NCBI GenBank assembly: GCA_951406725.2
Contig: CATOCA020000086.1
Coordinates: 1-6,765, forward strand
Length of the DNA: 6,765 bases
Reading direction: 5' to 3'
From: Octopus vulgaris
Lineage: Eukaryota
A program made the translations under genes and the position numbers. Every line of letters starts with the position of its first letter. Within the stretch, counting starts at the first letter, position 1. Shown one piece after another: positions 1 to 6,765 of this stretch. A model generated the notes under the pieces. That model had not been told where the DNA came from. It made no database searches and worked only from the letters and a program-made list of their open reading frames with translations.

Positions 1-301
1 ACGCAGATATACATCAAAAACGAAAATATCCTGTGTCTTGTTGATTCACAGACGAAGAATAAAATTCACTTCGATTTCGGGAAAGTAACACACGTGCGTT
101 TTAACACGTGTATTCGCGACTATGTTCTAGTTGCAAAATACTATATCAAAAGCGAAAATATTCTTCTCAAATACAGTGACTTGTACTTTCACTTATATTC
201 GCTTTGCAGACAATTTCGGTTCTGATAACATCGATCTCTGGAAGGACTTCCTTAATATTTAGGAGAGACACGTTAACACACTTGTTGTTAGTTCAGCGCC
301 A

Positions 302-324
302 ATATATATATATATATATATATA
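302..324. repeat. Short (TA)n, mirrored at 1572-1596
   Basis: About 11-12 TA units at the A/B boundary of both inverted arms. Confidence 0.95.
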
Positions 325-564
325 AATTCGACCAAGCAGTATTCGGTATGTAAAGACCATTTACGGTGTATTTGAAGTATTAATTTATAAAAATATGGTA
401 AAGTAAAAGAATTCACTTTACCACACACGAACTTTTCGAAATAGCAGCCAAAAACTTGGCTATTTCTTCAACTGCAAATAAAAGTCTCCAGACAATGTAT
501 ACTCAGAAAATAACTCACATAGGAATAAGGGAAAAACAATGAAAGATCACATCCATATACGATA

Positions 565-625
565 CCCGAGGACAGTCTGTTTCTGGATTTGTGGGTAAAC
601 GCCACTTTTCCTTCATCAGCTCAGA
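565..625 (-). ncRNA. Type I hammerhead ribozyme motif, inverted copy; predicted cleavage at 571/570
   Basis: Reverse complement of 1267-1328, with one fewer U in the stem II loop. Confidence 0.78.
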
Positions 626-728
626 GATTTCTTTTGATTTAGACTTGAAAATACTAAGAATCAAACATACCCGTCCGATATCTGTAACATCGGACAAACT
701 ATGCCAGACATCCAGTACTAGCGAATCC

Positions 729-1012
729 TGGCGTTTTACCCACAAATCCAGAAACAGACTGTCCTCGGGTATTGTATATGGATGTGATCTTTCATTGTTT
801 TCCCTTATTCCTATGTGAGTTATTTTCTGAGTATACATTGTCTGGAGACTTTTATTTGCAGTTGAAGAAATAGCCAAGTTTTTGGCTGCTATTTCGGAAA
901 AGTTCGGTGGTGTGGTAAGTGAATTCTTTACTTTACCATATTTTTATAAATTAATACTTCAAATACACCGTAAATGGTCTTTACATACCGAATACTGCTT
1001 GGCCGAATTTAT
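729..1012 (+). repeat. Third, 5'-truncated copy of the repeat: direct repeat of 1288-1574 and inverted repeat of 322-604
   Basis: tggcgttttacccacaaatcc...gaatttat occurs at both 729 and 1288 (offset 559). Confidence 0.96.
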
Positions 1013-1163
1013 TAATAATTAATTGATTCGACCCCCATTTTCTCATAACAATATAATGCTTTCTCTCCAAGAATTTAAACTGCAGTTTTACCTCTGTAGA
1101 AATGGAATGCTCTATGACTCACGTGGGCGGACAGGGAGAATAATAGATCTCATTCGTATTTTT

Positions 1164-1892
1164 GGATTCGCTAGTACTGGATGTCTGGCATAGTTTGTCC
1201 GATGTTACAGATATCGGACGGGTATGTTTGATTCTTAGTATTTTCAAGTCTAAATCAAAAGAAATCTCTGAGCTGATGAAGGAAAAGTGGCGTTTTACCC
1301 ACAAATCCAGAAACAGACTGTCCTCGGGTATCGTATATGGATGTGATCTTTCATTGTTTTTCCCTTATTCCTATGTGAGTTATTTTTCTGAGTATACATT
1401 GTCTGGAGACTTTTATTTGCAGTTGAAGAAATAGCCAAGTTTTTGGCTGCTATTTCGGAAAAGTTCGGTGTGTGGTAAAGTGAATTCTTTTACTTTACCA
1501 TATTTTTATAAACTAATACTTCAAATACACCGTAAATGGTCTATACATACCGAATACTGCTTGGTCGAATTTATATATATATATATATATATATATTGGC
1601 GCTGAACTAACAACAAGTGTGTTAACGTGTCTCTCCTAAATATTAAGGAAGTCCTTCCAGAGATCGATGTTATCAGAACCGAAATTGTCTGCAAAGCGAA
1701 TATAAGTGAAAGTACAAGTCACTGTATTTGAGAAGAATATTTTCGCTTTTGATATAGTATTTTGCAACTAGAACATAGTCGCGAATACACGTGTTAAAAC
1801 GCACGTGTGTTACCGAAATCGAAGTCAATTTTATTCTTCGTCTGTGAATCAACAAGACACAGGATATTTTCGTTTTTGATGTATATCTGCGT
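1164..1892 (+). repeat. Right arm of long inverted repeat (pairs with 1-728)
   Basis: Reverse-complement identity with 1-728 along its whole length. Confidence 0.97.
1267..1328 (+). ncRNA. Type I hammerhead ribozyme motif (minimal stem III); predicted cleavage after GUC at 1322
   Basis: Stem I UCUGAG(1267-72)/CUCGGG(1323-28), with 2 G-U pairs. Core CUGAUGA(1273-79). Stem II GGA/UCC plus GUGG/CCAC. Core GAAA(1310-13). Stem III ACA-GAC-UGU. Cleavage triplet GUC. Non-canonical feature: A.A (1280/1309) where the first stem II pair is normally R-Y. Confidence 0.8.
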
Positions 1893-1913: not shown

Positions 1914-2447
<534 letters not shown>

Positions 2448-2455
2448 AGGTTTTT

Positions 2456-2469
2456 GGCCAGTATTGGCC
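2456..2469 (-). other. LINE 3' UTR stem-loop (GGCCA-ATAC-TGGCC)
   Basis: 5-bp GC-rich stem with 4-nt loop, 8 nt upstream of the terminal repeats. A further TGGCC just upstream (2472-2476) allows an alternative pairing. Confidence 0.55.
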
Positions 2470-2515
2470 CAGGCCATGTCTAACTTAATAGCACCACCTG
2501 GTGAAGTCTTTCAGT

Positions 2516-5500
2516 TCAGGATTTGGGCACCAAGGCCCATTCGAGCAGAGAGTTATTGTTTGCGGAGACATATCCGGGTGTGGATGGTTTGTCCGGTACT
2601 GTTTGAAGGAATTTGTCCAAAGACTTCTTGAATTTTGTGTGGTCAGTTTCTTTTTTGACGTGTCCTGGTGTAATGTTGAAGAGAGCGGGTCCAATTGAGG
2701 TGAAATAGTTGTGCCGTATTGTCGTTATGTGATGCGATTTAGATTTTTGTTGTGGACGGATGGCACGTGGTCCAAGCCTTGGATGCATTTTGAAGGTGAT
2801 GCCAACATCATTCGGACAGTGCTGATGGAATATTTTCCACATCATACAGATAATGTAGCGTTCACGGCGTCGTTGGAGTGAATACAATTTCAGCTTCTCT
2901 AGTCTACCCCAGTAGTCAAGGTCTGACATGCCATCTATCTTTTTTGTGATTGACCTTTGGGGAGCTTCAATTCTCATAATATTTTGTTTTGTGTAGGGAG
3001 ACCACAGTGGACAGCAGTATTCAAGGTGGGGTCGGGCAAAAGTGGAGAAGAGAAGGATAATAGCGTGGGAATCTCTCGACTGGAAGGTTCTGAGAATCCA
3101 GGAACACATTCTGCGGGCCATGTCAACTTTGCTGCTTATATGTGTAGCCCAGCTTATGTTGTTGTCCACTGTTACTCCCAGGTCTCTGATGTTGTTGGAT
3201 GCCATGAGAATTTCTCCAGAAGGAAGAGAGTATGGGAGTTTCAGAGCGTCCTCCCTTCCAAAGTGGATCAGTTCGAATTTGTCTTCATTTAGCAACATGT
3301 TATTCTTTTCCGCCCATTGGACAACAGCTAGTAGGTCTGACTGAAGGTTTATTCGGTCATCCACGCCATTGATGACCTTCTGGAGCTTGGAATCATCAGC
3401 GAAGGTTCTGATGTTGCTGTGTTTGATGGTGTCAGTAATATCATTTATGTAGATGATGAAGAGAAGTGGGCCCAACACAGTGCCTTGTGGGACACCACTG
3501 CTGACTTTGGCTGGGCTGGATTTGACTCCTTCGACTACAACAATGTTGGGTTCTGTTAGAGAGGAAGCACTTGATCCATTGCAGCAGCTTTCCAGTGACA
3601 CCAATATTGGACAGCTTTCTCAGAAGGATCTTATGATCAACCCTGTCAAAGGCCTTGCTGAAATCAAGGTAGATGACATCAGTGTTGGAACCCTCTCCCA
3701 AGGCTCTCAAAATGTCATCAAAATGATGCAGTAGCTGCGTCAGGCAATCTCTCCCATTACGGAATCCATGCTGGTTGGGGTTCAGCATATTATGACTCTC
3801 AAGGAAGTGAGTCATACGCGATCTCAGCACCCTCTCAAATACCTTGATGATATGAGAGGTGAGTGAGATTGGACGGTAATTCACGGCAAGCGATTTGTTT
3901 CCTTTTTTGAAAACTGGGACAACAGACTGGGATAGAAGGTCTTCTGGTATATATCCAGCATCCAATGAGTTCCGCCACAGATTGGCTAGAGGGGGTGCAA
4001 GTTGGTTTTGACACATCTTCAAGACACAAGCAGGGAACCTATCGGGACCTACTGCTGAATTATGCTTCATTTCCTTTATTGCTGCTAAGACATCAGGAGC
4101 GCCAAATGTTATGTCCGATAAAGTGTATTGGGGAGTAACATCACTGATACAGCCCAGATCAGTCATATCAGGATTGCTGAAAACAGAGCAATATTGTTTC
4201 TGCAATATTTCTCCCATGGTTTTGGCATTGTCTTGAAGAATACCATTTTCATCAATCAGAGGGCCAACAGTAGAACCAGTGACTCTGTGTTTTTTTGCAA
4301 ATGAAAAGAACACTTTGGGATTGAGTTTGATCTTCTCAATGGCCCAGGCCTCTTCAGCTCTTCGCTGACTATTGATGATAGACATCATGTTGTTTTGGAG
4401 TTTATGTTTTTTAATCTCTAGCGATGAGATGGCAGTCAGGTTGGTGTGTTGCTGTTGACAGTATTTCAGCATGTTGATCTTTTTGTTGATTCTTTTAATT
4501 TTCCTTATGAGTTTTTCTATTTCTAGGGATTCTGACACTTAGATTTGTTTGCAGATCTTAATGGGGTGTGTCTTGCACATATGTTCGTAATGGTGTCTAC
4601 AAGTGACTGCCAGGACTTTTTGATGTTAGTGGGTGTGTATGTGTGCGTGAAGGACCAATCGACTTGTGCAAGATCATTATTGATCGCTTCCCAGTTTGCA
4701 TTGTGGAAATCCATAGTGTCAAATGGATGAACAGGAGGGATGACATTTGTTTTGCATTTTGGCCAGTAAAATCTCAGATCACAGAGAACCATGTCATGGT
4801 CGGAGAGTAGGGTTTTCTCCACTGCAATATTGTGGATAGTATCAGTGTGATTGCTGAGTCTAAGACGTTTTTGTGACATCTCGTTGGTTCGAGTACCAGT
4901 TGGGACAAAGAAGAAGTCATCCATGAAGTCAAGAAGCGATTCCACTGCCTCCCTGTCAGGGGTTGAGAGAGAAGAACCTGGCGGCAGACTGTTTGTAGAC
5001 CAGTCAACCCCGGGAAGGTTGAAATCTCCCATCATTAAAATGTTGTCAGGTTGACACTGCTGAATGAAACACTTTATGCTGTTGAGGCATTCCTTGAAGC
5101 ATGGTAGGGGCGTTTGGGGTGGTCTGTAGAGCCCAACTACTGTTAAGTTGTTGGTTTGACTGAATACAGCGACTGCTTCGCAGTATCCATTCGAAAATAT
5201 GTTCATGGCTTCTGTTGAGAATGAATCATGGACATAAATGGCAGTCCCACCCTTTCTTCTGTAACACGATCAGCACGAATGGTTTTGAAATTTTTAACTT
5301 TCACCTCGGCTTCCAAGTGGAGGTCACTAAGATGGGTTTCAGTGAGGACGAAGAAAGGGATGTGGTTTGGATGGGCCTCGACCCAGTCCTCCAGGAATCT
5401 TATCTTCCATTTTTGTGTATTGGTGGAAGGGCTGATGCCTTGGGCATTAAGCAGAAATGTTGAGGCGAGAGTGGATGGTTTTAATTGTTTTGGTGATTTG

Positions 5501-5526
5501 TTTATTTGATTGCTTTTTAATGGCAT
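2516..5526 (-). pseudogene. LINE ORF2: APE-type endonuclease + reverse transcriptase, frameshifted (pieces 5526-5203, 5206-4523, 4538-3441, 3604-2516)
   Basis: APE motifs LLNAQG, LTETHL, (frame-corrected) RKGGTAIYV, GLYRPP, MGDFN, LSDHD. RT motifs YRPISLTS, QHGFR, YLDFSKAFDRV, GVPQGTVLGPLLF, FADD, DLGV. Frame changes inferred near 5260, 4907, 4860, 4535, 4513 and 3543; these may be decay or sequencing/consensus errors. Confidence 0.95.
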
Positions 5527-6000
5527 GTGTAGTGGGGTAATAGTGGTGGATGGCGGTGGGTGATAGCTCGGATGTTTTTTTCCAGTTCTTTTGCTAGATT
5601 CATTATAGCTAAAAAGAGGAAGAAGAGGTGGTTTCCTGTCTAGGGAACCGCAGGTGACTGTGGCCGCGGCTATTTTTATGTGAGTGGTTATCTTTAAATG
5701 TCCGACGAGTCCCCGGGAGATGGGTAAAGGGGCAATCCCTGTGCAAACACAATCTGTCTCGCTGGGAATAGCGGCAGATTTGGGGATTCCTTGTTTGAGA
5801 TATTGGTGGTTGTGGTGATGTTGTATTATGGTGGTTGCTGTTGTAGTTTGTGGGGATAGAGCGTTTTGTTCCAGGTAAATGGGTGAATTTGCAGTCTCTA
5901 TCAGTGCACAGTCTATGGCGAAGAGAATATCGGCAAATGATGGGGTTTCGAGTGGGTGTGTAGGTGCGTGTATGTGTGTGAGCTGTGAAAGGTGTAGATG
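5517..6000 (-). CDS. LINE ORF1, C-terminal part: two tandem CCCH zinc fingers plus probable helical tail (frameshifted; boundaries approximate)
   Basis: CRYSLRHRLCTDRDCKFTH and CRYSQRDRLCLHRDCPFTH (C-x8-C-x4-C-x3-H) occur in the 6304-5609 frame. A -1 shift at the T5 run (5611-5615) continues as FLAIMNLAKELEKNIRAITHRHPPLLPHYTCH to a stop at 5519-5517. Confidence 0.7.
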
Positions 6001-6746
6001 ATAGGTTTGAAGTTTTGGCGACCTTTGTGACCTGTAGGAGGTAAATTCCTTGAGATAGCATTAGTAGTAGTAGCTGTAGTAGTAGTAGTAGTAGTAGGTA
6101 GAAGAGATGTTGACGGTGGTAATGATTGAGGAGGTCGATTCCAAGACAAAGATGTTTGTCGATATATAGTGGGAGTAGTACTAGTAGTAGTAAGCAGAGG
6201 AGATGGTGTTGACAATGATGATGATTGAGCTGCTGGGGCAGTGAAAGGAAGGAGTGGTGCTTCCTGCTGTGTGACCCTGATGACTGGGGGGTCAATCGTT
6301 TCATTTAGCAAATCGGCCATTGTAGATGAATCAAGGAGTGGTTCATCCTGTTGTTGTTGTTGAGGTTGTTGTTGTTGCCTCTGAGGTTGTTGCTGCTGAA
6401 GTTGTTGTTGTTGCTGTACCTGTTGTTGTTGTTGTTGTTGCCGCTGAGTTTGTTGTTGTTGAGGTTGTTGTTGTTGTTGTTGCGCCGGTGATGCGTTCGA
6501 AGAGAAAACACATCTCAGTTTATCGAAGTGTTTATTTATTAATTTAAAAGCAACTTCGATTTGTTTTAATTTATTTTGGATCTGCTGTTCAGATCGAGTT
6601 TGCAAATGGTGAACTGTTCGTTTAGCAATTTCGTTCAGACGCGAAGCACCTATGCTCTCTGTTTCGGTAAGGCCATGCCATGTGTTGATAAGAACGTCGA
6701 CTTCATTATCAGACCAGTTTTTGTTGGATTTTTGGTGGCTAGCCAT
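5913..6746 (-). CDS. LINE ORF1, N-terminal part: Myb/SANT-like (trihelix/MADF-type) domain, poly-Gln, Pro/Ser/Thr-rich linker
   Basis: NWSDNEVDVLINTW...NEIAK...RSEQQIQNKLKQIEVAFK (6719-6543) fits the W[ST]xxE-x3-LIxxW...R[ST]xxQxxxK pattern of Myb/SANT-like domains. It lies upstream of and co-oriented with ORF2, and probably joins the zinc-finger frame through an indel around 6040-5960. Confidence 0.75.
   Translation of the reverse strand: MASHQKSNKNWSDNEVDVLINTWHGLTETESIGASRLNEIAKRTVHHLQTRSEQQIQNKLKQIEVAFKLINKHFDKLRCVFSSNASPAQQQQQQPQQQQTQRQQQQQQQVQQQQQLQQQQPQRQQQQPQQQQQDEPLLDSSTMADLLNETIDPPVIRVTQQEAPLLPFTAPAAQSSSLSTPSPLLTTTSTTPTIYRQTSLSWNRPPQSLPPSTSLLPTTTTTTTATTTNAISRNLPPTGHKGRQNFKPIIYTFHSSHTYTHLHTHSKPHHLPIFSSP
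6062..6096 (-). repeat. (ACT)n coding microsatellite, poly-Thr
   Basis: tagtagtagctgtagtagtagtagtagtag on +; TTTTTTTATTT in ORF1. Confidence 0.85.
6348..6482 (-). repeat. Imperfect (CAA/CAG)n coding microsatellite, 45-codon Gln-rich tract
   Basis: (TTG)n on the + strand; QQQQQQPQQQQTQRQQQQQQQVQQQQQLQQQQPQRQQQQPQQQQQ in ORF1. Confidence 0.95.
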
Positions 6747-6765
6747 TCTGGTTGATATGTTTTAT

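Follow-up and report, generated by a model that had tools for sequence, protein, structure and literature searches.

Does a non-coding repeat on a short Octopus vulgaris contig encode a self-cleaving RNA, and how would such an RNA relate to the way the repeat spreads? The original prediction placed a type I hammerhead ribozyme in the repeat and linked it to the terminal repeats of Penelope-like elements (PLEs) and to non-LTR retrozymes. The window, i.e. the whole stretch of DNA analysed, is an entire contig of 6,765 bp (G000:C116) in an assembly of 2.8 Gb and 227 contigs. The fold is very probably a real, selected hammerhead in a non-autonomous PLE-type tandem repeat, and real cleavage by the predicted hammerhead is probable.

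Direct reading and a coordinate check found CUGAUGA, GAAA, GUC and three stems in type I order, all where they had been predicted (Table 1). Stem I (1267-1272/1323-1328) pairs as U.G, C-G, U.G, G-C, A-U and G-C, and both wobbles become C.A on the opposite strand, which confirms that its G-U pairs are usable on this strand only. Stem II comprises a proximal helix (1281-1283/1306-1308), an AAA/AAA loop (1284-1286/1303-1305) and a distal helix (1287-1290/1299-1302). Stem III (1313-1315/1319-1321) closes a GAC loop, the GUC triplet occupies 1320-1322, and the predicted cut site lies between 1322 and 1323. The defining features of the hammerhead class are present, namely CUGANGA and GAAA boxes, a 3-8 pair and a NUH triplet after A15.1-U16.1. 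Covariation in helices I and II and ends within helix I were also found, among related sequences and with proximal helix II set by the search pattern, and helix III is predicted as pairing between copies.

Predicted pair probabilities were 0.94-1.0 for stems I and II, with 0.30 for the terminal U.G of stem I. Stem III was unformed in the monomer (pair probability <0.01); as a self-duplex between two copies, it comprised 8 bp with a central A.A (-6.9 kcal/mol). The folding energy of the motif monomer was not unusual (z -0.32). The two computational checks proposed with the original prediction diverged. A relaxed type I descriptor returned one match per strand in the window, compared with one match in 5 out of 500 dinucleotide shuffles and two matches in none, whereas the Rfam hammerhead models had no match on the window (E≤5) or on 1225-1370 (E≤10).

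Table 1. Features of the hammerhead and of the surrounding repeat, in positions of the window
Feature	Position	Strand	Remarks
Complete type I hammerhead fold	1267-1328	+	Read directly; coordinate check; sister covariation
Core box CUGAUGA	1273-1279	+	
Unpaired A between A9 and G10.1	1280	+	Usual in PLE hammerheads
Stem II: 3 bp, 3x3 A-rich internal loop, 4 bp, 8-nt loop	1281-1308	+	
Extra A between C11.1 and G12	1309	+	Variant feature
GAAA box, self-complementary stem III and GUC triplet	1310-1322	+	GAAA at 1310-1313
Second complete hammerhead, in the inverted arm	565-625	-	Loop II one T shorter
3' half of a third hammerhead, without CUGAUGA	729-769	+	Begins at the inversion point
Single full repeat unit, ~561 bp	1013-1573	+	Four open frames scanned, no Pfam match
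Upstream tandem unit, 5'-truncated	729-1012	+	
Inverted arm	1-728	-	Mirror of 1164-1892; part beyond the unit, 1-301
Two hairpins	1427-1503	+	Region best conserved among sister families
(TA)n run, insertion 3' end (target site)	1572-1596	not assigned	

Self-comparison of the window returned the mirrored arms listed in Table 1 and a repetition of 1288-1579 at 729-1017; the tandem content amounts to one full and one half hammerhead copy. The inverted arm also mirrors 295 bp of non-unit flank and reaches the contig start, an arrangement from which other loci differ. This small contig is the sole place where the unit-to-flank junction was seen, with one occurrence in each arm, and the differences between the two arms are mainly small indels. 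Either a fold-back introduced by the library or the assembly, or a doubly copied 3' transduction, may account for the part of the inverted arm beyond the unit. From the two hairpins, we infer a candidate signal for a borrowed reverse transcriptase. Downstream, 1598-1916 belongs to the interior of a different, larger repeat with at least 40 matches, which a long TA run interrupts here; this (TA)n occupies 1917-2429 (513 bp) and is followed by a minus-strand LINE (2430-6765) with a Myb/SANT-like frame, a glutamine run, and AP endonuclease and RT frames. The LINE is broken by frameshifts, ends at the (TA)n and has no relation to the hammerhead motif. A scan of the window for tRNAs found none, and an Rfam match to MIR5998, under its gathering score, was discarded as a product of the inverted repeat.

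The exact motif pattern had 165 matches in the genome, versus 0 for a reversed control, and the same motif is present on many chromosome-scale contigs. Contigs of three large public runs, one of them under a second organism label, cover the unit across the motif. In contigs of public runs, the region 1440-1491 is common to other repeats. Genome searches with a pattern for the 3' region gave 499 matches, and those with a core pattern for sister families 477, each against 0 in the control. The sister families retrieved are 72-88% alike to the unit. We aligned the window, L044 and 21 out of 30 core-pattern loci (alignment A1, 23 rows; nine near-duplicate or decayed copies omitted). In A1, 94.8% of cells pair, compared with 26-44% in slid controls, and both sides change in 11 out of 17 pairs, including the core 3-8 pair (C3-G8/U3-A8), counts that come from related sequences and with proximal stem II invariant by construction of the search pattern. 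Shuffles of A1 reached the pairing level or the covariation score in 0 out of 500 cases and the pair count in 20 out of 500. RNAalifold recovered stems I and II unprompted, and not stem III. The covariation anticipated for genomic copies was, therefore, found among the sister families.

The 51 sister motifs carry four versions of the core 3-8 pair (C-G 28, U-A 14, U.G 7, C.A 2). The sequence of stem III varies widely among them but is self-complementary in most, which dimer cleavage requires; a NUH triplet (GUC, GUU, GUA or AUH) stands at the best-pairing site. The internal loop of stem II is AAU/UAA in most sisters. In some of them (L145:1491-1560 and similar), an AAU/UAA loop recurs just past stem I, a possible tertiary or protein contact. 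Two further tandem families with hammerheads were observed: L143:320-3721, with a period of 505 bp and long inverted arrays, and L261:626-1525, with a period of 494 bp. The expected conservation of the core across copies holds between families and not within the young family, where shared motif alleles numbered 0 against 2.0-2.3 expected (p 0.08-0.11, not significant). An apparent seven-fold per-site conservation of the motif within the family was discarded, since the set was partly selected by the motif and the fairer allele test was not significant. Between sisters, mean identity was 0.73-0.83 over the motif versus 0.76-0.93 over the 3' hairpin region.

The base of stem II had been described as an A.A that makes the motif a variant. 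The variant stands; the pair probably does not, because the 5' base varies among the 51 distinct sister motifs (A 38, C 11, G 1, T 1 after A9). The equivalent of base 1309 in these motifs is A in 42 and C in 9, always exactly one base where the pattern allowed 0-2. In complete copies of the unit's own family (first 30 loci, the best BLAST matches), both this A and the other flanking A are present in 48 out of 48. The A.A is, thus, probably two unpaired bases, one flanking each strand of stem II, rather than a pair: the 5' base is the known 9a bulge of PLEs, and the 3' base is the unusual part. A precedent in which extra bases flank stem II on both sides exists among viroid satellites. The extra base at 1309 would likely be tolerated opposite the 9a base. 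Other families of the same genome combine a similar stem II with a canonical junction, so the extra base is specific to one clade; for these relatives, the pattern count was no higher than the control (95 versus 96), and only the recurring families of that match list were used.

An unpaired base after A9 is usual in PLE hammerheads (PMC4209133). The minimal PLE consensus in Fig. S3 of that work has this 9/10.1 base and a palindromic helix III, both found here, and continues from G10.1-C11.1 directly to GAAA, whereas here G10.1-C11.1 does not abut G12. In the same figure, AGAAA occurs in 1 out of 56 GAAA cells (the 29th; by row order, a wasp-associated PLE, a row assigned by order only, as columns are not kept in the extracted text), a probable precedent for the extra 3' base. 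Natural hammerheads with a basal U.U mismatch in stem II have been described (PMC3088659), and the axolotl HHR_Amex2, which has the same mismatch in the same place, cleaves (PMC7229834). The extra 3' base is rare in print, probably with precedent. A review (PMC6765202) cites Lunse et al. 2017 on PLE hammerhead variants. The extra-base junction was not described in the literature that our searches covered; Lunse et al. 2017 may already describe it, and the supplements of the bioRxiv preprint may bear on its novelty.

The repeat is non-coding with a GC content of 0.31-0.39, below the 45% that characterises retrozymes. Arrays at other loci contain 2-3.5 units, each with a complete type I hammerhead, which is the tandem organisation of retrozymes. 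A frame encoding RT and GIY-YIG between repeats, as in autonomous PLEs, was not found at the examined copies. We surveyed insertions at 40 loci comprising 63 tracts. Their 5' ends are variable and scattered along the unit, and an inverted arm is present at 23 out of 40 loci. For 49 out of 63 tracts, the 3' ends fall into two zones, 1513-1548 and 1017-1057, with edges blurred by TA, and (TA)n follows most tract 3' ends. The insertion features of a non-autonomous PLE are present: 5' truncation, partial tandems, an inverted head, a tail and microsatellite targets. PLEs show this same pattern, with an inverted 5' copy (PMC8557442), and preferred ends have been attributed to internal start sites of the PLE reverse transcriptase (PMC11167929). 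Together with the covariation among sister families, this insertion pattern supports the proposed link to PLE repeats and non-LTR retrozymes. Of 100 listed copies (out of 178), 99 continue across the cut site and none begins there. The templates were, therefore, either uncut or rejoined, and both fit equally. Contigs across the cut site in four runs guessed to be RNA, one with a unit-to-unit joint, were not retained as evidence, given that the joint also occurs in DNA and the RNA status was guessed.

As possible autonomous partners, the genome contains Neptune-type PLEs with intact 781-aa frames, as well as Hydra-type PLEs, which likewise have intact frames; the names come from a comparison of domains with PMC8557442, and the Hydra-type frame has no Pfam match. 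In the Neptune-type and Hydra-type families whose motif was located, the hammerheads are their own and different from that of the unit. A young Neptune-type PLE (L135-L141), with many intact 781-aa frames and an upstream frame of up to 479 aa, carries a U3-A8 minimal hammerhead about 1 kb past the endonuclease. In an abundant Hydra-type PLE (L174-L203, L227-L230), stem II of the hammerhead is likewise built of 3 bp, a 3x3 internal loop and a long distal part, with a canonical junction. No autonomous PLE contiguously sharing the unit was found among 111 partly overlapping loci with endonuclease matches (150 out of ~6100 candidates scored per search). Four apparent neighbours of PLE frames (L131, L155, L206 and L261) proved to be separate insertions parted by TA runs. 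Further matches (L112/L138, L187, L241 and L253) are taken from the search only, not base by base.

Unit divergence is 0.52% within loci versus 2.2% between loci, and 12 arrays contain 40 non-consensus alleles fixed across all tandem units versus 27 polymorphic sites. The arrays, therefore, look rebuilt from one unit, as would result from a circle or repeated template jumps. The same 5.4-kb L1/Tx1-like LINE lies inside the unit at three insertions (L271, L294 and L295, on G000:C3, C32 and C12), flanked by a 19-bp duplication with one mismatch. The composites differ from one another in their 5' ends, in their inversions and in their 3' ends, which lie in TA runs, indicating that the repeat carried the LINE as cargo to at least three sites; a 4-kb NRPS module is cited as cargo between PLE terminal repeats (PMC6431247). 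Targeting of the unit by the LINE was considered and rejected, as the 3 out of 20 LINE ends in the unit all lie at one junction, that is, one insertion copied. The two copies of the target duplication are not identical, and the position at which they diverge is itself polymorphic in the repeat family. Elsewhere, several 3' ends of the L1/Tx1-like LINE (L279, L281, L282, L283, L288 and L292) appear to enter copies or relatives of itself, which suggests head-to-tail or nested insertion.

In the composite on C3, the two hammerheads, 6 kb apart, share C1307A, a change that breaks a stem II pair and was seen neither at 37 other loci nor in the composites on C32 and C12. This single site at a single locus is a hint that one template stretch may have been copied twice after the LINE arrived; conversion in a source array is an alternative source of the shared change. 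At C3, the upstream copy runs into plain unit, not LINE; both cut sites are intact, and the unit that precedes the LINE is uninterrupted. The run into plain unit is not what a simple circle would predict, and it needs a jump across the duplication.

How might such a repeat move? Arrays would be transcribed as multimers, in which two motifs would pair via their self-complementary stems III, perhaps aided by protein, and be cut after GUC. The unit-length RNA could then be rejoined into a circle. A PLE reverse transcriptase/GIY-YIG protein would nick (TA)n DNA and start at either of the two internal zones, and copying round more than once would yield homogeneous arrays. We consider it fairly likely that the ~561-bp non-coding repeat is a non-LTR retrozyme, with a type I hammerhead predicted to self-cleave slowly as a dimer and with likely mobilisation by PLEs; for a circular or rejoined monomer as the template, the balance tips only slightly in favour. 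A stronger version, which we entertain tentatively while leaning against it, has an active core across the whole clade, with extra bases on both sides of stem II, and copies that record PLE rolling-circle transposition, including a ~6-kb circle carrying the LINE.

Dimer cleavage and circles have been shown for other animal retrozymes (PMC7229834). In an active PLE studied in vitro, hammerhead mutants had no effect on insertion, cleavage needed protein, and RNA ends were not found at the cut site (PMC11167929). Dimers of Xenopus retrozymes cleaved in vitro in one case out of nine, and not in the other eight (bioRxiv 10.64898/2026.07.22.740005). The PLE mutant data, the Xenopus dimers and the within-family allele test count against activity. 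In one alternative account, unlikely in our view yet a substantial competitor, the fold is real and selected but rarely cuts, and no circle is needed. The fold would then act as a protein-bound structure or a late switch, the PLE protein would copy uncut linear RNA, and homogeneity would come from template jumping or gene conversion. The reading through of the cut site in 99 of the 100 listed copies agrees with it, as does the C3 composite with its uninterrupted unit and intact cut sites. Unprocessed RNA is, moreover, the main substrate of the active PLE in vitro (PMC11167929), and proximal stem II and the A-rich loop are nearly invariant, partly by the search pattern, as a binding site might be. 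On the other hand, the features that covary (the 3-8 pair, the NUH triplet and the self-complementary stem III) are catalytic needs, and alleles fixed across whole arrays need a single-unit bottleneck.

If the hammerhead did not cut at all, it could be a dead relic of an ancestral PLE terminal repeat, inactivated by the extra base and mobilised via the 3' hairpins alone. We regard this as improbable. The lack of an Rfam match, the non-significant depletion of shared alleles within the family and a sister identity over the motif that does not exceed that of the 3' hairpins are compatible with a relic. However, every sister has the extra base, and compensatory changes are seen among them in the 3-8 pair, in stem I and in the distal part of stem II. 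It appears, therefore, that the fold was retained as the families diverged; mismatches at the base of stem II are, in addition, natural (PMC3088659), and the axolotl one cleaves (PMC7229834). The chance that the match is a coincidence or an assembly artefact is practically negligible. The window being a whole contig with an odd fold-back, and the unremarkable folding energy, would suit such an origin, but it is refuted for the motif itself by its presence on many chromosome-scale contigs and in the public runs, including the one under a second organism label, and by the 5 out of 500 shuffles that match the descriptor.

The closest known relatives of the ribozyme are the metazoan PLE hammerheads that are minimal or have a small palindromic helix III (Cervera & De la Pena 2014, PMC4209133). 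Shared features are the type I order, the unpaired base after A9, the long helix II, the palindromic helix III, U3-A8 core covariation and predicted action as dimers. The motif described here differs in that an additional base separates C11.1 from G12 and is fixed throughout a clade of families; its helix II has a 3x3 A-rich loop after the third pair, its helix I is 6 bp long, and a coding frame is absent. Animal non-LTR retrozymes (PMC7229834; bioRxiv 10.64898/2026.07.22.740005) resemble the repeat in several respects: their tandem units are non-coding, low in GC and equipped with a single type I hammerhead; they occur as monomers, dimers and multimers; and they share the genome with PLEs. 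Their units are typically ~300 bp, rather than 561 bp, and their ribozymes are of the canonical loop1-loop2 type, whereas that of the octopus repeat is PLE-like. Unlike them, the repeat occurs as short arrays that are scattered through the genome, have inverted heads and lie in (TA)n, and it is known from genomic copies. Neptune, Hydra and Naiad PLEs and the non-autonomous Chlamys elements (PMC8557442) share with it the 5' truncation, partial tandems, inverted 5' copy, 30-40-bp tail and microsatellite targeting, the latter to (TA)n for Hydra and Naiad; in contrast to the PLEs, the repeat has no reverse transcriptase or endonuclease. The cargo of PLE terminal repeats (PMC6431247) likewise places several kb between two repeat copies, although here the place of the NRPS module is taken by a 5.4-kb L1/Tx1-like LINE inside the unit, in three separate insertions.

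The element class, a non-LTR retrozyme or non-autonomous PLE, is already known, so the motif alone is modest news; its unusual part is the stem II junction. The sister families form a natural allelic series, with A or C at the extra position, C-G, U-A or U.G at 3-8 and varied palindromic stems III, which could be used to test the tolerance of the hammerhead core at the stem II junction. Rfam is blind to the motif, as descriptors that require C11.1 to adjoin G12 can be expected to be; counts of such families may therefore be too low. Published work disagrees on whether these hammerheads cut in vivo and on whether circles are the templates, and the young arrays and the LINE-tagged composite offer a route to asking both questions of PLE and retrozyme hammerheads. 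If the clade-wide rolling-circle account is true, these copies would document, at the level of the genome, that circles made by a ribozyme serve as templates for transposition, which is the open step of the retrozyme model.
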